A DNA stretch of 64,000 nt from Deltaproteobacteria bacterium (GTDB lineage: Bacteria > Myxococcota > Kuafuiibacteriia > Kuafuiibacteriales > Kuafuiibacteriaceae): assembly GCA_040218735.1 (NCBI GenBank), contig JAVJQW010000008.1:288001-352000 (forward strand). The letters are read 5' to 3'. The notes under the pieces are model-generated. The model had not been told where the DNA came from, searched no databases, and saw only the letters and a list, made by a program, of their open reading frames with translations. Position 1 is the stretch's first letter, and every line of letters begins with the position of its first letter. Below are positions 2,149-64,000 of the stretch, piece after piece. The translations under genes and the position numbers were made by a program.

Positions 2149-3333
2149 ATGGCGCTGAAGGGCACGATCAAGGACTTCGGTGTTGCCGACATCTTCCAGC
2201 TGATCAGTCAGCAGGGGAAGACAGGCGTCCTCGTCTTCAGCAACGACGTCGACGAAGTGCGCGTGTACTTCAAGGACGGCTCGGTCGTTCGGGCGAGCAA
2301 CACGCTGCGCACTGCGCAGATGTTGTTGGGCAGCCTGATGGTACGCGCGGCCGTCGTCAGCGACGAGCAGCTGCAAGAAGCCTTGCGCGAGCAGCAGCGC
2401 ACGTTGAAGCGCCTCGGCGCGGTCATGGTGGAGCTGGGGTACGTCGACGTCGAGATGGTGAAGGACTTCGCCACGCTCCAGATGACGGAGACGATCTACG
2501 CCCTGTTCGAGTGGAAGTTCGGGACGTACGAGTTCGAGAGCGTCGACGTCGAGCCCTCCCCCGAGGGGGTCCTCCCGATTCGTGCCGAGACGATCGTCAT
2601 GAACGGGATCCGGATGACGGACGAGTGGCCGAGCATCCGCGAGAAGATCCCGTCGTACACCTGGCGCGTCGAAGCGGTCCGGCCCCTCCCCGAGGAAGAG
2701 GAGTCGTCCGCCTCCGACAGCGACGAGTTCGACTTCTCCGCGCTGGGCGAGGGGGGCGGCACGACGGCGTACAACTCGATCGGCGCGTTCGAGCGCAAGA
2801 TCTTCGGCCTCATCACCCCCGAGCGCACCGTCCAGGAGATCATCGACCGATCGCGGCTCGGTGAGTTCGAGGCGTGTCGTGCGCTGAGCACGTTGATGAC
2901 CGAGGGGTACATCCGGGTCATCAAACCCACGCCCATCGAGGACGAAGACGCCCCGAAGGTGCGCGTCGACCCCGCGATGCGGATGCGTCGCATCGGCGGG
3001 ATCTTGGGCCGCATCGTGGTGAGCGCGGGGCTCGTGGTGGTCGGCGCGATGCTCGCGGGGCGTGCGGCGGCGTTCGTCGGCGGCAAGAACAGCGTCAGCG
3101 ATCTGACCTACGCGCCGAGACCGGTCGAGCGTCGTCTCGCCGAGGCCCAGATGCACCGGCTCCGCCGCGCGATCGAGGTGTACCGCTACGAGCGCGGCGC
3201 GTACCCGACGAACCTCGCGCGCCTCGTCGAAGTCGGGCTCTTGCAGGACGACGACATCCGCTTTCCGTTCGAGGCCAACTACTTCTACCGCGTGGTCGGC
3301 GAGACCTACTCCTTGCTGCCGCCGGTCCACTGA
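2149..3333 (+). CDS. DUF4388 domain protein with MshEN-like helical motif, TM segment and GspG-like C-terminus
   Basis: Starts MALKGTIKDFGVADIFQLISQQGKTGVL (DUF4388-type); ATG 2 nt after upstream stop; C-terminal AIEVYRYERGAYPTNLARLV. Confidence 0.8.
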   Translation: MALKGTIKDFGVADIFQLISQQGKTGVLVFSNDVDEVRVYFKDGSVVRASNTLRTAQMLLGSLMVRAAVVSDEQLQEALREQQRTLKRLGAVMVELGYVDVEMVKDFATLQMTETIYALFEWKFGTYEFESVDVEPSPEGVLPIRAETIVMNGIRMTDEWPSIREKIPSYTWRVEAVRPLPEEEESSASDSDEFDFSALGEGGGTTAYNSIGAFERKIFGLITPERTVQEIIDRSRLGEFEACRALSTLMTEGYIRVIKPTPIEDEDAPKVRVDPAMRMRRIGGILGRIVVSAGLVVVGAMLAGRAAAFVGGKNSVSDLTYAPRPVERRLAEAQMHRLRRAIEVYRYERGAYPTNLARLVEVGLLQDDDIRFPFEANYFYRVVGETYSLLPPVH

Positions 3334-48914: not shown

Positions 48915-51098
48915 TCAGTAGCAGAAGCTGATGATCGCGCTCGTGGGCGAAGCGGTGCTCGGCTGCCACGTGCCCATCTGCGAGACGCTGTTCCAGTTGA
49001 TGTAACCTGCCGTCCAGTACTGGTTGTTCGTCAGCGGCTGGCTGACGGTCGCGACGACCATGCCGCGGATGGCGATCTGCACGGTGGGCGTAACGGCGCC
49101 GTTGCCGCGGTCGTTGAAGAGGTGGACGACGACTCGATACTGGCCGTCCTCCGCGACGCTCAGGTTGATGTTCTCGGGGCCGGGGCCGAACAGGTCGTCG
49201 CGGTCCAGGAACGGGTTGTCCTGCGGCACGCCGGCGACACCCCAGTCGGGGTTCGTGTTGCAGAAGCAGTTGTCGCCGGGGGCGTCGAAGAGCAGGCCGC
49301 CGCCGGGGCGGATCAGGTGCAGGTCGACGTCGTGGTTCATGCCCGGCCACGTCAGCGTGATCGAGATGTCCGTGAGCGACGGCGGCGGCGGGTCGGTCGT
49401 CGCGCTGATCGGGACGTTCACGTTGCCGCCCGGATCGTTCGACTGGATCTCCAGCGTCCCGGTGTACGAGGCGACCACGCCGTTGTCGAAGTAGTCGACG
49501 TTGAACATCGTCGACGCGCCGGGGTTGAGCGACGTCATCGCGGCCGGCGGGGAAGGCAACGTGAAGCGGCCGCCCGCGTTGTTCGTGAGGCGCACCAGGT
49601 TGAGCACGAGCGGCGCGGTGCCGTCGTTGCGGACCAGCACCGAGCGCGACGCCTGCGTCCCGCGCGGCACGCCGCCGAACGCGATCGGGTTCGGGCTCAC
49701 GAAGATCGCGGGGAGCGCCTGCATCGTACCTTCGCCGGTGATCGGGACGCGCACGGTGGGCGTCGTCGGGTCGTTGCTCCGCACCACGACCTCCGCGGCC
49801 GGCGCGATGCCGACCTGCGTCGGCGCGAACTCGACCTGGAACGTCGACAGGTCCATCGGCCGCAGCGCCGTGCCGGAGGTCGGCGCGTTCACGAGCGTGT
49901 ACGGCGTGCCCATCGGCTCGATCGTCACGTCCTGCGAGAGCATCAGATCCGCGGTGCCGAGGTTCGACACCGTGAGGTTGAGTTGGCGCGTCTGCGCGAC
50001 TTCGACCGCGCCGAACGCGAGTGACGTCGGCGAGACGTCCACGCGCGGCGTCGGCGCGATGTCCGCGGTGCCGTTGATCGCGACCTGAACAGGCTGCGGC
50101 GCGCCCGTCGACTGCACCCGCACCTGATCCATGTGCGGCGTGTCGTTCTGCGGCGCGTACGTGACGTCGACCTGCATCGAAGCACCCGCGAGGATCGTGT
50201 ACGGCGCGGTCGCGGTCGTCGTGAGCGAGAACTGCGGCGTCATCGTCGTGTTGCTGGAGACGAAGACGAGCTCGGTGATGTCGTGGTCGACGTCGCCGAT
50301 GTTGCGGATGAAGAACGGCTGCGTGCGCGTCTCGCCGACGTAGAGGCTCGAGAACGAGAGCGTCAGCGGCTCGACGACGATGTCCGTGTCGACGCCTTCG
50401 CCGCGCACGTTCACCGCGAGCGCTTCGGCGCGCGGTGAGTTGTCGAGGATGGTGATCGTCGCCATGTCCGGCCCGACGTCGGTCGGCGCGTAGGAGACCG
50501 GCAGATCGACCGACGCACCCGGCGCGAGCTCCACGCGTCCGAGCGTCGAGCTCACCTCCATCGTCCCCGCCGTCATCGCGCGCAGGAGCGTGACCGGGCG
50601 ATCGGAGCGGTTCGTCAGCGCGACGGTCGCGCTCACGGTGCGGCCGACGAGCACACGACCGAAGTCGACCGTCGCCGGCGACGCGACGATCGCGGGCTCG
50701 ACGCCGCGCCCCTTCACCGGGACGACGACCGTCTTCTCCTGGGGCGAGTCGGTCTCGAACGTGATCGTGCCTTCGCGAAGGCCGGGGCTCGTCGGCACGA
50801 ACGTGAGCGTCGCGCCGTGTTTGGCGCCGGCGCCCAACGCAGGCGGGATCTCGGAGAGCGTGAACTCACCGGCGAGTGAGTCCGACAGCGTCACCGACAT
50901 GATGTCGAGCGGGACGGAGCCGGGGTTCGTGAGCTCGAGGTCGGCGGTGTACGAGACGCCGACGGCGGCGTCGCCGAAGTCGACGGCTTCGGGATCGACG
51001 ATGAGGACCGCGTCACCACGGGCGACGACGAATTCCTCCTCACAGGCGAGGGCGCTCGCGGCGAGGAGGAGCGCCACGGTCACGAGAGTGCGGTTCAT
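48915..51098 (-). CDS. Choice-of-anchor D (ASH/Ig-like) repeat lipoprotein with C-terminal YfaP-like domain
   Basis: About five P..(V/L/I)xF...V...N.G repeats; LTW....DVDLHL and GPGPENI; lipobox ALAC. Confidence 0.75.
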   Translation of the reverse strand: MNRTLVTVALLLAASALACEEEFVVARGDAVLIVDPEAVDFGDAAVGVSYTADLELTNPGSVPLDIMSVTLSDSLAGEFTLSEIPPALGAGAKHGATLTFVPTSPGLREGTITFETDSPQEKTVVVPVKGRGVEPAIVASPATVDFGRVLVGRTVSATVALTNRSDRPVTLLRAMTAGTMEVSSTLGRVELAPGASVDLPVSYAPTDVGPDMATITILDNSPRAEALAVNVRGEGVDTDIVVEPLTLSFSSLYVGETRTQPFFIRNIGDVDHDITELVFVSSNTTMTPQFSLTTTATAPYTILAGASMQVDVTYAPQNDTPHMDQVRVQSTGAPQPVQVAINGTADIAPTPRVDVSPTSLAFGAVEVAQTRQLNLTVSNLGTADLMLSQDVTIEPMGTPYTLVNAPTSGTALRPMDLSTFQVEFAPTQVGIAPAAEVVVRSNDPTTPTVRVPITGEGTMQALPAIFVSPNPIAFGGVPRGTQASRSVLVRNDGTAPLVLNLVRLTNNAGGRFTLPSPPAAMTSLNPGASTMFNVDYFDNGVVASYTGTLEIQSNDPGGNVNVPISATTDPPPPSLTDISITLTWPGMNHDVDLHLIRPGGGLLFDAPGDNCFCNTNPDWGVAGVPQDNPFLDRDDLFGPGPENINLSVAEDGQYRVVVHLFNDRGNGAVTPTVQIAIRGMVVATVSQPLTNNQYWTAGYINWNSVSQMGTWQPSTASPTSAIISFCY

Positions 51099-51238
51099 CC
51101 GACGCAAACTAGAAAACTCACCGAATTGCGGCATCGGACCTCTGTCGGGGGTCTGGGGTAGGACCCTATAACCGCGGGGAGGTGTGGACAGGTGCGCACG
51201 GCTTGACGGCGAGGGCATCCGTTTGGAAAGTGCGCGCC

Positions 51239-51910
51239 ATGATAACGGTTCGGACCTCGATCCTCGCATTCGCCGCCGTGGCGCTGTTTGCCTGTAAGGA
51301 CGGCGCGGCGGGCGAAGGTGACCCGAAGACCGCGAGCAAGGCGATGGATCTGAAGGATCCTTCGACGCTCACCGCGAAAGCCCCCGACACGTACACGGTG
51401 AAGCTGAAGACCACCAAGGGCGACGTCCTGATCGACGTGACGCGCGCCTGGGCGCCGCTCGGCGCTGACCGCTTCTACAACCTCGTGAAGGCCGGGTTCT
51501 ACGATGACACCGCGTTCTTCCGCGTGATCCCCGGGTTCATGGCGCAGATCGGCATCCACGGTGACCCCGCCATCGCCGAGGCCTGGCGCGCCGCGCGCAT
51601 CCAGGACGACCCGGTGAAGGAGTCGAACACCCGCGGCATGGTGTCGTTCGCCACCGCCGGCCCGAACACCCGCACGACGCAGTTCTTCATCAACTTCGGG
51701 AACAACGCGCGCCTCGACGGGATGGGCTTCGCCCCGATCGGGAAGGTCCGCAACATGGAGATCGTCGACAAGCTCCACGGCGGCTACGGCGAAGGCGCGC
51801 CGCGCGGGAAGGGCCCGAACCAGGGCCGACTCAACCGCGAGGGCAACACGTACCTGAAGGCGGACTTCCCGGAGCTCGACTACATCGAGAAGGCGACGAT
51901 CGAAGGCTGA
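51239..51910 (+). CDS. Cyclophilin-type peptidyl-prolyl isomerase (lipoprotein)
   Basis: FFRVIPGFMAQIG, SFATAGPNTRTTQFFIN; lipobox LFAC. Confidence 0.92.
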   Translation: MITVRTSILAFAAVALFACKDGAAGEGDPKTASKAMDLKDPSTLTAKAPDTYTVKLKTTKGDVLIDVTRAWAPLGADRFYNLVKAGFYDDTAFFRVIPGFMAQIGIHGDPAIAEAWRAARIQDDPVKESNTRGMVSFATAGPNTRTTQFFINFGNNARLDGMGFAPIGKVRNMEIVDKLHGGYGEGAPRGKGPNQGRLNREGNTYLKADFPELDYIEKATIEG

Positions 51911-56184: not shown

Positions 56185-57462
<1,278 letters not shown>

Positions 57463-57540: not shown

Positions 57541-58152
57541 TCAGCTCTCCTTGTCCGACACGTCTCGGGGTTTGTTCACCAGGACGTCGTCCAAGATTCC
57601 GTAGGCCTTCGCCTCGTCCGCAGACATGAAGAATTCTCGGTCGGTGTCGATGGCGACGCGGTCCCGGTCCTGGGTCGTGTGCTCGACCAGGATATCGGTC
57701 AACATATCCTTACGCTTGAGGATTTCCTTCGCCTGGATCTCGATGTCCGAGGCCTGGCCACCCGCCCCACCGAGCGGTTGGTGCAACATGATCCGGGCGT
57801 GCGGCAGCGCCTTGCGCTTGCCCTTCGTCCCCGCCGCGAGGATGACGGCGGCCATCTGGGACGCCTGTCCGATGCAGATCGTCGTGATCGGGCAGCGGAC
57901 ATACTGCATCGTGTCATAAATCGCCAAACCGGCGCTGACCGAGCCCCCCCGGCTGTTGATGTACAGGTTGACGTCCTTCTCCGGGTCCTCGGACTCCAGG
58001 AACAGGAGCTGGGCCACGATGACGTTGGCGAGGTCGTCGCCGATGTCCGAGCCCATGAAGACGATGCGGTCCTTCATCAGGCGCGACCAGATGTCGTACT
58101 GGCGCTCGCCGCGGTGCGTCTGCTCGAGGACGTAGGGGACGAAGTAGCTCAC
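57541..58152 (-). CDS. clpP: ClpP-family subunit with substituted catalytic residues (probable non-catalytic)
   Basis: Full-length colinear with ClpP; GQASQMAA and DTDREFF instead of GQAASMG and DTERD. Confidence 0.92.
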
Positions 58153-58294: not shown

Positions 58295-59683
58295 CTAGTG
58301 CTCGTGGTCGTGATCATGATCGTGGTCGTGGTCATGATCGTGGTCGTGATCATGGCCCGCGTGCGCCTCGGCCTCGAGCTCCTCGGCCGTGACCTCACGC
58401 TCCGTGACCGTCGCGTTGTCCATCACGAAGTCCAGCGCCTTGTCCTGGCGCATGTTGTACTTCAGCGCGTCGATCTGATCGTTGTCGCGCAGCTGCTGCT
58501 TGAGCTGCTTGAGCGGCATCCGGTGTTCGCGCGCGAGGTCCGCGATGCGGCCGTCGATCTCGCTGTCCTCCACCTCGATCGACTCCTGCCGCGCGACGGC
58601 CTCCAGGATCAACATCCCGGCGACCTGCTTCTCGGCGCGCGGGCGCGCCTCGTCGCGGAGCTTCAGGACGGCCTCCATGACCTCCTGGCTCTTCGACTGC
58701 TCGGCCGCGCGGTTCGCGTCCTGGAGCAGGAAGTCGAGCTGCCGATCCGTCATCAGCGGCGGCACCTCGACGGGGTTCATCTCGACGAGCTTCTCCATCG
58801 CGGCGTCGCGCAGCATGCGGCGTGACTTCGCGTCCTCGCGCGTCGCGAGGTTCTCGCGGAGGTTGTCCTTGAGCTCCGCCAGGGTGTCGAACTCGCCGAG
58901 GTCCTGCGCGAAGTCGTCGTCGAGCTCGGGGAGGATCTTCTTCTTGAGCTCCTTGAGGTCGACCTTCCACTCGACGTCCTTGCCGCGCGCCTCCTCCGGA
59001 CCTTCGTCCTTCGGGAAGTTCAGGTCGAAGCGCTTCTCCTCGCCGATCGTCATGCCGACCAGCGCGTCCTCGAAGCCCGGGATCATCTGTCCACCGCCGA
59101 CCTCGACCGTGTAGTTGATGCCCTTGCCGCCCTTGAACGTCTCGCCGTCGACGTAGCCGAAGAAGTCGATCACCGCGAGGTCGCCGTTCTCCAGCGTCTT
59201 GCGGTCGGTGACCGGCTCGATGACCATCGCCTTCTCGCGGAGCATCTCGAGCTCGCGTTCGACCTCGGCGTCCGACACCGCGCGCACCTTCTTCTCGACC
59301 TCGAGCCCCTTGTAGTGCTCGACGTTGATCTCCGGCTTGACCTCGACCATCGCGACGAACGCGAGCGGCGTGTCCTTCTCGAGCTTCGGCATCTCGTCGA
59401 GGCGCGGGTTGTTGATCGGCACGAGCGCGTTGTCGGCGATCGCACGCTTGAAGCTGTCGTCGACGAGGCGGTTCACGACCTCACCCTCGACGGCGCTCTT
59501 GTAGTACTGCTCGAGCACCTTGCGCGGCACCTTGCCGGCGCGGAAGCCTTTCACGCGCGCGCGCTTTTGGAGGCCTCGGTAGGCGAGGTCCAGCTCTTCC
59601 TTCACCTGGTTCCAGGGGACCTCGATCGAGACCTTGCGCTCGACTTCGGAAACTCGCTCTACGTCTACTTTAACTTCGGTCAT
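58295..59683 (-). CDS. tig: Trigger factor with C-terminal (HD)n tail
   Basis: GFRAGKVP ribosome-binding motif, FKBP domain MIPGFED; synteny with clpPX. Confidence 0.95.
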   Translation of the reverse strand: MTEVKVDVERVSEVERKVSIEVPWNQVKEELDLAYRGLQKRARVKGFRAGKVPRKVLEQYYKSAVEGEVVNRLVDDSFKRAIADNALVPINNPRLDEMPKLEKDTPLAFVAMVEVKPEINVEHYKGLEVEKKVRAVSDAEVERELEMLREKAMVIEPVTDRKTLENGDLAVIDFFGYVDGETFKGGKGINYTVEVGGGQMIPGFEDALVGMTIGEEKRFDLNFPKDEGPEEARGKDVEWKVDLKELKKKILPELDDDFAQDLGEFDTLAELKDNLRENLATREDAKSRRMLRDAAMEKLVEMNPVEVPPLMTDRQLDFLLQDANRAAEQSKSQEVMEAVLKLRDEARPRAEKQVAGMLILEAVARQESIEVEDSEIDGRIADLAREHRMPLKQLKQQLRDNDQIDALKYNMRQDKALDFVMDNATVTEREVTAEELEAEAHAGHDHDHDHDHDHDHDHDHEH

Positions 59684-59697
59684 GCTTCGCCTTCGTA

Positions 59698-59779
59698 TGC
59701 GGGAGGCGGGACTCGAACCCGCACGGGGTTACCCGCTGGAACCTAAATCCAGTGCGTCTGCCAATTCCGCCACCCCCGC
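59698..59779 (-). tRNA. tRNA-Leu (anticodon TAG), no encoded CCA
   Basis: GCGGGGG acceptor stem, GGAATTGGCAGAC D-arm, CTGGA-TTTAGGT-TCCAG anticodon arm, long variable arm, GGTTCGAGTCC T-arm. Confidence 0.95.
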
Positions 59780-59833: not shown

Positions 59834-60523
59834 ATGGCGCGCCGCATGCCGAAACGCGCCGTCGTCCTGCTCTCCGGAGGCCTCGACTCCGCCACCTGCG
59901 CCGCGGTCGCCCGGGACGAGGGCTACACCGTCCACGCCCTGTCGATCCGCTACGGCCAGCGCCACTCGGCCGAGCTGGACGCCGCGGCCGCCGTCGCGAG
60001 CCACCTGGGCATCGAGGACCACCGGATCGTCGACATCGGGCTCGGCTCGCTGGGCGGCTCGGCGCTGACGGATTCGGCCCTGGAGGTCCCGAAGAACGCC
60101 GTGGGGGCCGCGGGCATCCCGATCACCTACGTGCCGGCGCGGAACACCGTGTTCTTGGCGTTGGCGCTGGGCCACGCGGAGGTGGTGGGGGCGCAGGACA
60201 TCTTCTTCGGGGCGAATGCGCTGGACTACAGCGGCTATCCGGACTGCCGGCCGGCGTTTCGTGAGGCGTTCGAGGCGTTGGCGAACGTGGCGACGAAGGC
60301 GGTCGACGATCCGTCGCTGCGCTACCGGATCTTGGCGCCGCTGATGGACCTGACGAAGGCCGAGATCATCCGCCTGGGGACGCGGTTGGGGGTCGACTAC
60401 GGGCTGACCCACTCCTGTTACGACCCGTCGGGGGCGGCGGCGTGCGGGGCGTGTGACTCCTGTCTGCTCCGGAAGAAGGGCTTCGAAGAGGCCGGCGTCC
60501 CGGATCCGACCCGGTACGTCTGA
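59834..60523 (+). CDS. queC: 7-cyano-7-deazaguanine synthase
   Basis: [22 protein letters not shown]...CGACDSC. Confidence 0.95.
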
Positions 60524-60573
60524 CGGAAGAATTGCCAGCGGGCTGGATCCCTCGTAAGCGTATCGGTGCGCCC

Positions 60574-61164
60574 ATGCGAGAGTGTCTCGGCTGGATCACG
60601 ACGTGTCCGAACGACCAGAGCTGCCCCATGAACTGGCTGGAGCTCGCGGTGTCGGAGATCCCCATCAAGATCAACTGCCACGTCTGTGAGCGAAAGGTGT
60701 CGCTCGTCGCGACGCAGGCCGAGCTCGACTCGGCCGGTTCCTCGAACGCGCTCGCCGCGTTCCCGGTGGTGCCCTGCGCCGGCCCGACCGACGCCCCGAT
60801 GGCCCCCGCCACCGGCAACGGCGCCGCGGGCCACGCCGAGCCGGTCCGCGCGCGTCCGCCGACTCCGGCCCCCGCGCCCGTCGCGCGCGCCTGGACGGTG
60901 ACGCTCCAGAACGGCGAGATGATCAAGATCGACAAGGACACGATGATCATCGGCCGCAGCCGAACCTGCGACGTCGTCATCCCCTCCGCGAAGGTCTCGC
61001 GCCAGCACGCGTCGCTCTCCCGCATGGAAGGTGAGCTGTACATCGAGGACCTCGGCTCCGCGAACGGCGTGTGGCTCAACGGCGAGAAGGTCACGCGCGC
61101 GAAGATCAAGGCTGGGGACAGCTTCACGATCTCGGACGAGACGCTGCTCTTCGAGGAGCGATGA
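60574..61164 (+). CDS. FHA domain protein with N-terminal Cys-rich module
   Basis: IGRS..CD...VSRQHA...DLGSANG; N-terminal CPMNW...CHVC. Confidence 0.85.
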   Translation: MRECLGWITTCPNDQSCPMNWLELAVSEIPIKINCHVCERKVSLVATQAELDSAGSSNALAAFPVVPCAGPTDAPMAPATGNGAAGHAEPVRARPPTPAPAPVARAWTVTLQNGEMIKIDKDTMIIGRSRTCDVVIPSAKVSRQHASLSRMEGELYIEDLGSANGVWLNGEKVTRAKIKAGDSFTISDETLLFEER

Positions 61165-61673
61165 ACCTCTACCAGCCGTTCTTCTGCGAAGAGAACGTCT
61201 GGCACCTCGCGCAATCCGCTACGTTCGCTTCAAAAGAACGGCGCGTCGTCTTCGTCTCCAACGCGCGGCGGCAGGTGCCGCTGTGGTGTCAAAAGGCCGG
61301 GGCGCCGGACGGGCCGGTGGTCTGGGACTACCACGTGCTGCTGTTCGTTCGGGATCCGTACTGGCGGGTCTTCGACCTCGACACCACGATGCCGTGGGGG
61401 TCGCGGTTCTCGGAGTACTTCGCGGCGACGTTTCGGATCGTCACGGGCGAGTTTGCGCCGCGGTTTCGGGTGATGGACGCGGACGACTTCGTCGTGACGC
61501 TCGCGACGGACCGGTCGCACATGCTCGACGACGAGGGTGCGTATCGTGCGCCGCCGCCCGAGTGGCCGGCGATCGGCGAAGGCACGAACCTGATGCGGTT
61601 CGTGGATCTCGACGACGACATCGCCGGTGAGGTCGTCGATGCCAAGCCGCTGGTCCAGCGGTTCTCGGTGTAG
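61161..61673 (+). CDS. Protein N-terminal glutamine amidohydrolase (NTAQ1/WDYHV family) homolog
   Basis: FCEENVW, VFVSN, VVWDYHV, FDLDT, DRSHM, PPP.WPAI. Confidence 0.88.
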   Translation: MNLYQPFFCEENVWHLAQSATFASKERRVVFVSNARRQVPLWCQKAGAPDGPVVWDYHVLLFVRDPYWRVFDLDTTMPWGSRFSEYFAATFRIVTGEFAPRFRVMDADDFVVTLATDRSHMLDDEGAYRAPPPEWPAIGEGTNLMRFVDLDDDIAGEVVDAKPLVQRFSV

Positions 61674-61744
61674 CTCGGGATTTTTCTCCGCGGACCGTCG
61701 AATCTTCAGATCGCACCCTCGCTTCGCCCGTTAGCCTTGTTTCC

Positions 61745-62509
61745 GTGCAAGCTGCGCCGAGCCTCCGCCGTCCTCTCCTGCGCCGGGCCGCCATCGTGGC
61801 GGGCACCCTGGTCGGCGCGACCCTCCTCGGCGCCGCTTTTGTGCCGGGCGACCTCACGCCGCGGACGAAGCCTCACGTTTCGCTGGAGCGCCAGGACGGA
61901 CCGTTCGGCTTGCAGATGCGGGGACGCATCGAGGCGACCGAGGACGGGTTCCGGATGGTCGACGAGCCGAGCATGGACCTGACGATGAACACCCTCCCTG
62001 TTCACGACCTCGAGCCGACGGCGCACCCCGTTCGCGTCCGTCTCCTCTACGCAGACAAGACGGTCGATCTGCAGACCGCGCTCGAAGCGTGTCCGACGTC
62101 GGGTCGGTGCGGGACGTGTTTCCCGGCCGTGGACCTCGACGAAGGCCAGATCGGTAAGTGGCGCCTCGGTGTCAATGTGGAGCCGGGGTTGCTGCAGATC
62201 CAACTCTTCCTGCACGACCACCTCGTGAACACGTGGGAGCGTCCCGCGACGCCGGTCGGAGTCGATGCGGTGACGCTCGATGGCTCGGCGCTGACGTGGA
62301 AAGTCTCCGGTCAGGGCCGAGTGTCCCGCGTGGAGTACACGCAGGTCGCGGATGCGTGGACGACGGTCCCGACGCTCGCCGACCTCGACCGCGTCGCGAA
62401 CCTTCCGCCCGTGAAGTCCGAGCTCGACCTCATCCGCTACCGAGTCCACGTCACGGACGGCTTTACTCTGGCTACGGCGGTCTCCGAGCTCGTCGACCCA
62501 CCCCGGTGA
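61745..62509 (+). CDS. Hypothetical exported protein
   Basis: N-terminal hydrophobic segment; CPTSGRCGTC. Confidence 0.55.
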   Translation: MQAAPSLRRPLLRRAAIVAGTLVGATLLGAAFVPGDLTPRTKPHVSLERQDGPFGLQMRGRIEATEDGFRMVDEPSMDLTMNTLPVHDLEPTAHPVRVRLLYADKTVDLQTALEACPTSGRCGTCFPAVDLDEGQIGKWRLGVNVEPGLLQIQLFLHDHLVNTWERPATPVGVDAVTLDGSALTWKVSGQGRVSRVEYTQVADAWTTVPTLADLDRVANLPPVKSELDLIRYRVHVTDGFTLATAVSELVDPPR

Positions 62510-62516
62510 ACCGCGG

Positions 62517-63335
62517 TCAGATCAGTACGGGCGGATCTTCGTCACCACGAAGCCAGCTGCGGACGCGCTCCACGATCCAACCCGGGTCGTCGCGCGGGAG
62601 GTCGTGACCGGAGATCGGGTTCACGTACACCGGCGCTCCGGTGCGCGACGCGAGGCGGTGGCTGCAAACCGCGTTGGCGAGGGCGTCGGCCTTCGCCGCG
62701 AGGAGGAGGGTGGGCGTGTGCATCGCGTCCGGCGCGTCGAAGCGTGTCGCGGCGGCGAGCTGACGGAGCGCGTGCCGGACGGACATCGGCGCAAACGCGT
62801 CGAGCGCGGCGGAGGCCTCGGCCATCGCGGCGTGCTCCGCGGTGCGGGTGGACGTCGCCGCGAGGATCAGCGCTTCTCGTCGCACCGGATCGCGGACGAG
62901 CATCGCCTTCACCACGTTGCCGAAGGCGCCGATGCCCATCCGCTCGAACGGCGTCCCGAGGTTCTTCGCGGACGAGTTGATGATCACCTGGCCCGCGAAG
63001 TCGTCGGGGTGGCTCGCGGACCACGCCATCGCGACCATGCCCCCCAGCGAGATCGACATGAGGCCCCACGCGCCTTCGTGTTCGCGTTTCAGGTCGAGCC
63101 AGCGCGTGCGCACGTCTTCCATCGTGTCGACGACGGAGAGCGGCGGCGCCCGACGGTGCTCCGTCCCGAAGCCCGGCAGGTCGAGGTGGTGGACCTCGAC
63201 GCCGAGCGCTTCGGCGAAGGTCGCGTCGAAGCCGGCCCAGTGTTTCTGGTGGCGCGCGAGGCCGCGTAGGAGCAGCCAATGGTCCGGGGGATCGATGCGG
63301 TCGTCGGCGCGGCGCACGCGTACGGCCGTTATCAA
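62517..63335 (-). CDS. Alpha/beta fold hydrolase
   Basis: WLLLRGLAR, LDLPGFG, SISLGGM, GHDLP; start uncertain (63335 or 63317). Confidence 0.85.
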   Translation of the reverse strand: MITAVRVRRADDRIDPPDHWLLLRGLARHQKHWAGFDATFAEALGVEVHHLDLPGFGTEHRRAPPLSVVDTMEDVRTRWLDLKREHEGAWGLMSISLGGMVAMAWSASHPDDFAGQVIINSSAKNLGTPFERMGIGAFGNVVKAMLVRDPVRREALILAATSTRTAEHAAMAEASAALDAFAPMSVRHALRQLAAATRFDAPDAMHTPTLLLAAKADALANAVCSHRLASRTGAPVYVNPISGHDLPRDDPGWIVERVRSWLRGDEDPPVLI

Positions 63336-63595
63336 CTCGCCGACGAAGTGTCGATCGGCGCGCAGCCGTTGGGCTTCGTGACGCGTTGGCTCGAAGGCGG
63401 GTACTTCTCGAGCAACCGCGCCGGCCGAACGGGTCGCGGTACGAACCCGCCGCCGCAGTTCGGGCACACGCCGCGCAGCACGTCGTCGACGCACGCGCGG
63501 CAGAACGTACACTCGAAGGAGCAGATCATCGCCGCCTCCGAGTCGGGCGCGAGGTCCTTGTCGCAGCATTCACAGTTGGGTCGCAGCTCGAGCAC
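63332..63595 (-). CDS. DUF1272 family Cys-rich protein
   Basis: LELRPNCECC, ICSFECTFC, CPNCGG. Confidence 0.85.
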   Translation of the reverse strand: MLELRPNCECCDKDLAPDSEAAMICSFECTFCRACVDDVLRGVCPNCGGGFVPRPVRPARLLEKYPPSSQRVTKPNGCAPIDTSSAS

Positions 63596-63691
63596 TTCGT
63601 CGCATTGTAGACGCTGAATGGTCCTGAGGTGAGCATCGAACTGTGCGCCTCCGCACCGGCGCTCCGCGCGGCTTCGGTATAACCTCGGGCG

Positions 63692-64000
63692 GTGCACCGC
63701 TTCGGCGAGTACGACGTCCTTGCGAAGCTCAGCGCATCGGGGCCGTCCGCCGTCTACCTCGTCCGCAAGCGCGGCGCTGGGCGGTTCGCCCACGTCGCTT
63801 GCCTCGAGACGTTCCGGCTCCCCACCACCGACGGGCTGGAAGCGCTGGAGGCGTTCGTCGAGGAGGCGACGTTTGCGACGCAGCTTCGCCACGAAGGCTG
63901 CATCCGCGTGCACGACGTCGGCACGAACGACGGGATCTCGTACATCGCGATGGAGCTCGTGGTCGGCGAGACGCTCGACGACCTCCTGCGGCGCGCACGC
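63692..64000 (+). CDS. Ser/Thr kinase-like protein, probable pseudokinase (3' partial)
   Basis: Manual translation: MHRFGEYDVLAKLSASGPSAVYL...VACLETF...FVEEA...LRHEGCIRVHDVG...YIAMELVVGETL. Confidence 0.75.
   Translation, partial: MHRFGEYDVLAKLSASGPSAVYLVRKRGAGRFAHVACLETFRLPTTDGLEALEAFVEEATFATQLRHEGCIRVHDVGTNDGISYIAMELVVGETLDDLLRRAR

Follow-up and report, generated by a model that had tools for sequence, protein, structure and literature searches.

We analyzed a 64,000-nucleotide stretch of a Myxococcota genome (hereafter the window: positions 288,001 to 352,000 of contig JAVJQW010000008.1 in assembly GCA_040218735.1), in which a plus-strand gene at 61161..61673 encodes a relative of NTAQ1, the N-terminal glutamine amidohydrolase of eukaryotes. 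NTAQ1 deamidates glutamine at the N-terminus of a protein and is not known to act on N-terminal asparagine, internal glutamine or acetylated glutamine. The gene is the last of a same-strand run that begins with queC and continues with a gene for a zinc-ribbon/FHA protein. The source assembly has a length of 11.6 Mb (96.5% complete, 4.65% contamination), and the contig that holds the window is 511 kb long.

The NTAQ1-family gene and its product

The gene runs from an ATG at 61161 to a TAG at 61671-61673 and is the single NTAQ1 gene of the source genome. An initial annotation had described a protein of 170 amino acids (aa) in which CEEN, WDYHV and DLD motifs supply a Cys-His-Asp triad, and both the length and the motifs were located in the open reading frame (ORF) as claimed: in the product, P0001, the motifs occupy residues 9-12 (61185-61196), 55-59 (61323-61337) and 72-74 (61374-61382), respectively. 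The profile search suggested in that annotation gave a full-length match above the curated threshold to the Pfam hidden Markov model (HMM) Nt_Gln_amidase (PF09764; E-value 2e-47, 161.6 bits with a cut-off of 27), pairing residues 4-168 of P0001 with profile positions 1-184 of 184, which is far beyond chance. With phmmer, P0001 matched the human NTAQ1 chain 4w79_A (E-value 5e-31) from human residue 22 onward; among the NCBIfam models searched, none matched P0001.

The catalytic triad of human NTAQ1 (hNTAQ1) is reported as Cys28, His81 and Asp97 (PMC4214742, Park et al.), and the HMMER alignment to 4w79 pairs these residues with Cys9, His58 and Asp72 of P0001. In hNTAQ1 the substrate's alpha-amino group is held via waters on Glu29, His148 and Asp79, and the next backbone atoms are held by Tyr80 and Met149 (PMC11168063); Glu10, His120, Asp56, Tyr57 and Met121 of P0001 align with these five residues in the same order. 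In an alignment of 69 bacterial homologs (A1), the invariant positions are C9, E10, E11, D56, Y57, H58, D72, R118, H120 and M121, and thus include the whole of the triad that the initial annotation had pointed out. Human Glu158, for which a preference for substrates with a basic residue in second place has been proposed, has Ala130 as its counterpart in P0001.

An AlphaFold2 model of P0001 built on A1 (mean predicted local distance difference test score 97, predicted template modeling score 0.91) was compared with the PDB using Foldseek. The top 15 matches were all hNTAQ1 chains, with template modeling (TM) scores of 0.90-0.93, root-mean-square deviations of 1.6-2.2 Å, the superposition at TM 0.93 having 1.7 Å, and 34-36% sequence identity in the structural alignment, and the next neighbors were protein-glutaminases (TM 0.35-0.42, E-value 0.009 or worse). 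The ESM Atlas model agrees, with a TM of 0.93 to a chordate NTAQ1 cluster. As modeled, P0001 shares the three-layer alpha-beta-alpha fold of hNTAQ1, and NTAQ1 is a better match than any unrelated papain-like family, the alternative identity raised in the initial annotation. These results also bear on the idea that the fold and triad have been kept for another substrate, such as free glutamine, a small metabolite or an internal glutamine of one target, possibly the ligand of the FHA partner. Such a substrate would leave unexplained why the five residues positioning the alpha-amino group and first peptide bond are invariant in the 69 bacterial sequences, and the TM is about 0.4 to protein-glutaminase as against 0.93 to NTAQ1, making this alternative very unlikely.

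Compared with human and mouse NTAQ1 (WDYHV1, C8orf32; structures 4W79, 3C9Q, 6KGJ and 8JJF-8JK2), P0001 belongs to the same Pfam family and has the same fold, triad and alpha-amino-binding residues, but its 170 residues lack the N-terminal extension of roughly 20 residues found in the human enzyme. It also differs in that its gene is coupled to a zinc-ribbon/FHA gene and in being known from its sequence and a model. With the protein-glutaminase of Chryseobacterium and Flavobacterium and with other cysteine enzymes of transglutaminase-like type (SseI and LapG), it has in common a papain-like Cys-His-Asp core and the chemistry of glutamine side-chain deamidation, but the structural match is remote, and those proteins are secreted and act on internal glutamine or other substrates. 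P0001 itself should be cytoplasmic, because a catalytic cysteine at residue 9 leaves no room for a signal peptide. We rejected the possibility of a secreted effector or toxin deamidase given the missing signal peptide, the housekeeping context of the gene and the merely remote matches to SseI-like folds.

Profile, triad, alpha-amino-binding residues and fold all agree with the NTAQ1 homology first proposed for this gene, which is almost certainly a genuine and apparently functional bacterial member of the family. P0001 very likely deamidates N-terminal glutamine.

The coupled FHA gene and its surroundings

The partner gene directly upstream (60574..61164, plus strand) encodes 196 aa from a conserved ATG, the longest ORF starting at a TTG at 60532, and its stop codon overlaps the NTAQ1 start by 4 nucleotides (nt; ATGA, 61161-64). 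In its product, a variable linker rich in Ala and Pro joins a four-cysteine N-terminus to a C-terminal FHA domain (PF00498, E-value 3.2e-20). In an alignment of nine orthologs (A2), Cys11, 17, 35 and 38 of the N-terminal zinc-ribbon-like motif are invariant, as are G127-R128, S142-R143-x-H145 and N164-G165 in the FHA loops. We take these GR, SRxH and NG positions to be the phosphothreonine-binding sites of FHA domains.

We read the locus in ten genomes of the source organism's family (the window together with G001, G003, G006-G011 and G015, counting the duplicate loci L016/L032, equal to L013/L014, once). In nine of the ten, NTAQ1 is directly preceded by the FHA gene, which the G009 locus lacks, and the 4-nt overlap, read as ATGA, GTGA or TTGA, is present in seven of the nine loci with the pair. 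As a genomic pattern, the coupling of the FHA and NTAQ1 genes is real. Upstream of the pair, queC (7-cyano-7-deazaguanine synthase; 59834..60523, plus strand; Pfam QueC, E-value 5.2e-74) is found in the genomes of seven relatives. The same-strand run of queC, FHA gene and NTAQ1 is conserved. The three genes are probably co-transcribed, and we propose no functional link for queC. A terminator-like hairpin and T-run at 61663..61680 (plus strand), spanning the NTAQ1 stop codon, may mark the end of the transcription unit; one such site was found against a shuffle mean of 1.6, which is no more than expected by chance, and its position alone is suggestive.

Applied to the remaining 137 NTAQ1 loci, an HMM built from the partner picked out a single additional FHA gene. 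On this metagenome contig of 51.5% G+C (L138, 1925-2985), a small FHA ORF lies 24 nt downstream of NTAQ1 on the same strand, a second and independent adjacency of the two genes with their order reversed.

A Ser/Thr kinase gene comes directly after NTAQ1 in a genome of the same genus and lies 2 kb downstream in the source genome. We considered and rejected the kinase as a conserved part of the locus, since other genera are without it: a TetR regulator gene comes next in four other relatives, three of which also have YceI, and one further relative has a radical-SAM gene there. Relative to the same-genus genome, the window carries an insertion of about 2 kb after NTAQ1 (61745-63913), holding a 254-aa ORF with no family match and no relative in the compared loci, a minus-strand alpha/beta hydrolase gene and a cysteine-rich DUF1272 ORF.

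Upstream of queC and divergent from the queC-FHA-NTAQ1 run, the trigger factor gene tig (58295-59683, minus strand) heads a run with clpP (57541-58152, minus strand) and clpX (56185-57462, minus strand), the latter two lying about 3 kb from the NTAQ1 gene. A tRNA-Leu gene (59698-59779) sits between this run and queC. The C-terminus of the trigger factor is a His/Asp repeat tail, HAGHDHDHDHDHDHDHDHDHEH. Elsewhere in the window, a minus-strand gene at 48915-51269 encodes a 784-aa protein with repeated HYDIN/ASH/Cep192-type immunoglobulin-like (PapD-like) domains, which belong to families known above all from proteins of cilia and centrosomes in eukaryotes.

Distribution, ancestry and selection

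NTAQ1 relatives are patchily spread across bacteria. HMMER searches against 1.84 billion representatives returned 1,951 clusters at an E-value of 0.001 or below and 1,214 at 1e-10 or below, and a profile search of 90% clusters gave 3,465 proteins at 1e-10 or below among 5,748 candidates. When 185,579 species genomes were scanned with a pattern, 503 stretches were picked up, 433 of which encode a relative; lineages named among 80 of these include Myxococcota, Melainabacteria/Obscuribacterales, Gammaproteobacteria (including Psychromonas ossibalaenae), Planctomycetota, Lentisphaeria, Spirochaetales, Acidobacteriota, Hydrogenedentota and others. The named close homologs of P0001 are from Myxococcota. 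Of the 301 genomes sampled within this phylum, 39 had NTAQ1 above the cut-off. Four families carry it commonly (15/19, 8/11, 6/6 and 2/2), it is rare in the largest (2/115), and 15 of 19 other genomes of the source organism's family carry it. A 121-genome sample of the class of one Melainabacteria carrier offered no co-occurrence contrast, that carrier alone having NTAQ1 above the cut-off.

Three records are probably mis-binned or contaminant: a "Bathyarchaeota" contig (L087) near-identical to the gammaproteobacterial L085, an "Oligoflexales" contig (L017) near-identical to the Melainabacteria contigs L019/L020, and a EukProt gene model (P0368) whose NTAQ1 domain groups with Myxococcota.

NCBI, UniRef and JGI already name some bacterial members "protein N-terminal glutamine amidohydrolase" by homology. 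A literature search that covered titles and the beginnings of abstracts, with most subscription papers outside its coverage, found no paper on a bacterial NTAQ1 homolog, in agreement with the initial annotation, which knew of no characterized Gln-to-Glu tier in bacteria. The family name Nt_Gln_amidase turned up in a classification paper on papain-like proteins, which in its covered part merely lists the family.

The relation to eukaryotic NTAQ1, for which the initial annotation had proposed a phylogeny, was examined in a tree that combined 88 bacterial rows with NTAQ1 domains from 14 eukaryotic proteins bearing names. These were the proteins that a search for longer homologs had returned; they cover animals, fungi and one EukProt model but include no plants. 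Twelve of the 14 eukaryotic domains form one clade (support of 97 in the Shimodaira-Hasegawa-like approximate likelihood ratio test, SH-aLRT) that excludes every bacterial sequence. Of the other two, the EukProt model is paired with a sequence from Myxococcota (95) and an ascomycete groups weakly with Gammaproteobacteria (83); the backbone is without resolution. The tree thus separates most of the sampled eukaryotic domains from the bacterial ones and gives no direction of transfer. On the grounds of this separate clade we rejected the idea that bacteria recently acquired the gene from animals or fungi. Ten representatives picked as possible eukaryotes by their length and N-terminal extension turned out to be bacterial or without a name.

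The ratio of nonsynonymous to synonymous substitution rates (dN/dS) of the NTAQ1 gene against its same-genus ortholog is 0.38, compared with 0.17 and 0.18 for the two upstream genes. The gene is under purifying selection, which is looser than in those two. Looser selection might be taken as a sign that the gene was acquired and is decaying or without function, as might the patchy distribution (433 matching stretches in 185,579 species genomes) and the state of one relative in the source family, G004, where the NTAQ1 match (G004:C99:291380-291885) comes in two pieces covering profile positions 1-102 and 106-180, a split suggestive of a frameshift or pseudogene there. In the window the frame is intact and the catalytic residues are those that are invariant among homologs, dN/dS is well below 1, and the synteny and start/stop overlap with the FHA gene have been kept across genera. 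Decay is an extremely improbable explanation in the face of this evidence.

A possible deamidation tier in the bacterial N-degron pathway

The initial annotation had gone beyond homology in suggesting that the organism may possess a Gln-to-Glu tier in its N-degron pathway, and that bpt, aat and clpS should be sought in the genome. All three are present, as are clpA and clpP. The bpt product has both ATE_N and ATE_C and matches NCBIfam NF002344 at 267.3 bits (cut-off 252), the aat product matches TIGR00667 at 198 bits (cut-off 143.55), and clpS scores 112 bits, with a ClpA-type gene beginning at the clpS stop codon (L004). With bpt, aat, clpS-clpA and clpP all present, every step after Gln-to-Glu conversion is encoded, if the specificities of Bpt (Asp/Glu) and Aat (Arg/Lys) in the source organism are, as we assume, those of characterized orthologs.

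The source genome thus has each part that makes up the Leu/N-degron pathway in Vibrio vulnificus (Bpt) and Escherichia coli (Aat/LFTR), including ClpS and ClpAP. Bpt is reported to leucylate N-terminal Asp and Glu (bioRxiv 10.1101/2021.07.26.453911), and the predicted NTAQ1 product, N-terminal Glu, is of this substrate type. As described for bacteria in the cited parts of two sources, the pathway comprises primary and secondary residues and has no deamidation (tertiary) tier (PMC11441550; bioRxiv 10.1101/2021.07.26.453911), and the cited part of the second gives only the secondary residues Arg, Lys, Met, Asp and Glu as destabilizing in bacteria. The 2024 Varshavsky perspective, in the sections cited here, places NTAQ1 solely in the mammalian pathway (PMC11441550). 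The pathway position proposed for P0001 is also that of Nta1 of Saccharomyces cerevisiae and of mammalian NTAN1, which convert a tertiary into a secondary residue (PMC11441550), but these belong to unrelated families, human Ntaq and Ntan being 13.1% identical (PMC4214742). A search of the source genome with PF14736 (NTAN1) found no match; control genomes likewise had none, so this result carries little weight.

We next consider whether NTAQ1 and Bpt occur together, scoring Bpt presence by a match to ATE_C above the cut-off. Among the 301 genomes of the phylum, ATE_C was found in 32 of 39 NTAQ1 carriers as against 114 of 262 non-carriers, and the excess remains without the source organism's own family (16/23 versus 110/258). 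Counted by family, Bpt is present in 7 of the 9 families that have NTAQ1 and in 8 of the 27 that do not (p 0.016, one-sided Fisher test). For other lineages we chose 50 NTAQ1-bearing genomes out of 80 loci, leaving out the own-genus locus and mostly extra members of lineages already represented; 38 of the 50 had ATE_C above the cut-off, and one more had it below.

The strongest evidence for a tie to the N-degron pathway is the physical linkage of NTAQ1 to a divergent paralog of the leucyl/phenylalanyl (L/F)-tRNA-protein transferase. In P0358, a 460-aa protein of Achromatium sp. WMS3, Nt_Gln_amidase (residues 8-169) and Leu_Phe_trans (residues 249-419, 82.6 bits) are joined in one chain. Scanning with P0358 led to a metagenome locus (L097), 42% identical to the fusion, at which an HD-domain gene, NTAQ1 (1791-2330) and the transferase paralog (2349-3200) follow one another on a single strand, spaced 23 and 18 nt apart, with stop codons between the last two. 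This paralog scores 89.6 bits with Leu_Phe_trans and 55 bits with TIGR00667, under the cut-off of 143.55. At a further locus (L098), a paralog (1941-2789) 57% identical to that of L097 begins inside a canonical aat (244 bits), 8 nt short of its end, and is translationally coupled to it; this aat itself comes after a ClpA-type AAA+ gene. Counting another copy at L101 (508-1821), the paralogs score 57-96 bits with Pfam, all under the NCBIfam aat cut-off. The paralog may be an N-degron transferase that has so far gone undescribed. Together, L097/P0358 and L098 place an amidase beside an aminoacyl-transferase, as in the order of the eukaryotic NTAQ1 and ATE1 steps, and place that transferase itself in an N-degron operon.

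Taking these lines of evidence together, the best-supported role of NTAQ1 in the source organism is that its product feeds Bpt, ClpS and ClpAP, to which we assign a probability of roughly 0.55. A number of observations count against this role. Because the genomes compared share ancestry, the co-occurrence statistics treat them as more independent than they are. ATE_C is missing from 7 of the 39 carriers in the phylum, namely all six genomes of one family (f24; completeness 74-98%) and G177, and no match above the cut-off was found in 12 of the 50 carriers from other lineages; Bpt is therefore not an obligate partner of NTAQ1. Five of the seven Bpt-less carriers were tested further, and ClpS was found in 5/5 and Aat in 3/5. 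A tblastn search with the source Bpt, Aat, ClpS and ClpA located no match to any of the four at distances of up to about 4 kb from NTAQ1 across 91 genome loci, and among 147 NTAQ1 loci screened the sole adjoining N-degron gene was the L/F-transferase paralog at L097. The linkage to that paralog amounts to two instances in other lineages, and a search for the Aat paralog in the source genome found none. Pfam matches on 133 ORFs flanking NTAQ1 were mostly to unrelated genes; these ORFs came from 71 of the 80 loci (in 8 a crude picker found no NTAQ1 ORF, and L021 was dropped for size) and included shadow ORFs in several high-G+C loci. NTAQ1 also evolves faster than its surroundings, with 71% identity within the genus versus 89-95% for its neighbors. 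Fusions of NTAQ1 to a GNAT acetyltransferase in three clusters (P0226, P0382 and P0383) and to a PrmA-like methyltransferase (P0165) point to N-terminal or general protein modification, not degradation. Other fusions, to NUDIX, UDPGP, low-molecular-weight phosphatase and DUF309 domains, have no clear meaning, and any fusion seen in a single cluster may be a gene-calling artifact.

Several kinds of gene were observed beside NTAQ1 in individual lineages. In two Lentisphaeria loci, L081 (3318-6298) and L091 (2711-5697), a gene for a stand-alone Lon N-terminal (substrate-binding) domain overlaps the NTAQ1 start, and a gamma-glutamyltranspeptidase gene lies just downstream of NTAQ1 on the opposite strand; the latter gene is also found in L090 (762-2507). 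The gammaproteobacterial-type loci L037, L039 and L058 (HD_4) and L097 (1183-1767, HD_3) have a gene for an HD-domain phosphohydrolase immediately upstream of NTAQ1. Scattered proteolysis-related neighbors include a Clp_N protein (L083), DnaK (L038) and DPP-IV (L052).

Part of this evidence would be accommodated by the main alternative, a true N-terminal glutamine amidase that makes no degrons and instead blocks pyroglutamate cyclization of cleaved proteins or imported peptides, or matures certain N-termini as one modification among several made there, with its association with Bpt being loose. The carriers that do without Bpt (6/6 genomes of f24, and G177) fit such an enzyme, as do neighbors such as gamma-glutamyltranspeptidase (L081, L090 and L091), an amino-acid permease (L027), MFS transporters (in Melainabacteria) and DPP-IV, and the fusions with protein-modifying GNAT and PrmA-like domains. 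The neighbors cited are heterogeneous, however, and the single-cluster fusions could be artifacts of gene calling, while the enrichment of NTAQ1 in Bpt-bearing genomes and its fusion or adjacency to an L/F-transferase paralog of the clpA-aat operon would go unexplained. We consider a role in maturation or protection somewhat unlikely. For the Gln-to-Glu tier envisaged in the initial annotation, the bpt, aat, clpS-clpA and clpP genes, the enrichment for Bpt and the linkage to the transferase paralog provide comparative evidence, but 7 of 39 carriers lack Bpt and the neighbors of NTAQ1 are rarely N-degron genes.

We infer the enzyme activity, its coupling to Bpt and ClpS, and any role of the FHA partner, and propose the following sequence of events for NTAQ1 as a supplier of Bpt substrates. 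P0001, a cytoplasmic papain-like cysteine amidohydrolase, would bind a free protein or peptide N-terminus bearing glutamine, whose alpha-amino group would be held via waters by Glu10, Asp56 and His120 and whose backbone would be held by Tyr57 and Met121. After activation by His58 and Asp72, Cys9 would attack the side-chain amide; ammonia would leave, and hydrolysis of the thioester would yield N-terminal Glu. Bpt would then add Leu to this Glu, and ClpS would read the Leu and pass the protein to ClpAP. In this scheme, N-terminal glutamine bared by endoproteolysis would act as a tertiary destabilizing residue in a bacterial Leu/N-degron pathway. The steps downstream of P0001 would be Leu addition by Bpt followed by ClpS-ClpAP, where the human pathway has Arg addition by ATE1, UBR ligases and the proteasome.

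In the source family the zinc-ribbon/FHA protein would be made together with NTAQ1 by translational coupling, and it may direct or gate the amidase on Ser/Thr phosphorylation. In the most elaborate form of this proposal, the zinc-ribbon/FHA protein, kept by that coupling in a constant proportion to NTAQ1, would dock on phosphothreonine-marked proteins or fragments and bring the amidase to their N-terminal glutamine, so that a kinase signal leads to destruction by way of Bpt, ClpS and ClpAP, within a bacterial three-tier hierarchy, of a kind so far described for eukaryotes only, served by at least two transferases, Bpt or the new Aat paralog. We regard this scheme as quite unlikely in its entirety.

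Deamidation of N-terminal glutamine is treated in the cited parts of the literature as belonging to the eukaryotic Arg/N-degron pathway. The family offers several testable objects, among them a small soluble enzyme, a conserved FHA partner and a previously unnoticed L/F-transferase paralog linked both to NTAQ1 and to clpA-aat, and, judging by record titles, its cultivable carriers include Polyangium fumosum DSM 14668, Psychromonas ossibalaenae ATCC BAA-1528 and Persicimonas caeni. The finding would matter less if the enzyme merely guards N-termini against pyroglutamate. If an active bacterial NTAQ1 does act upstream of Bpt, it would add a third tier to the bacterial pathway and make more protease-generated fragments degradable, and the logic of amidase, transferase and recognin would be common to bacteria and not confined to eukaryotes.

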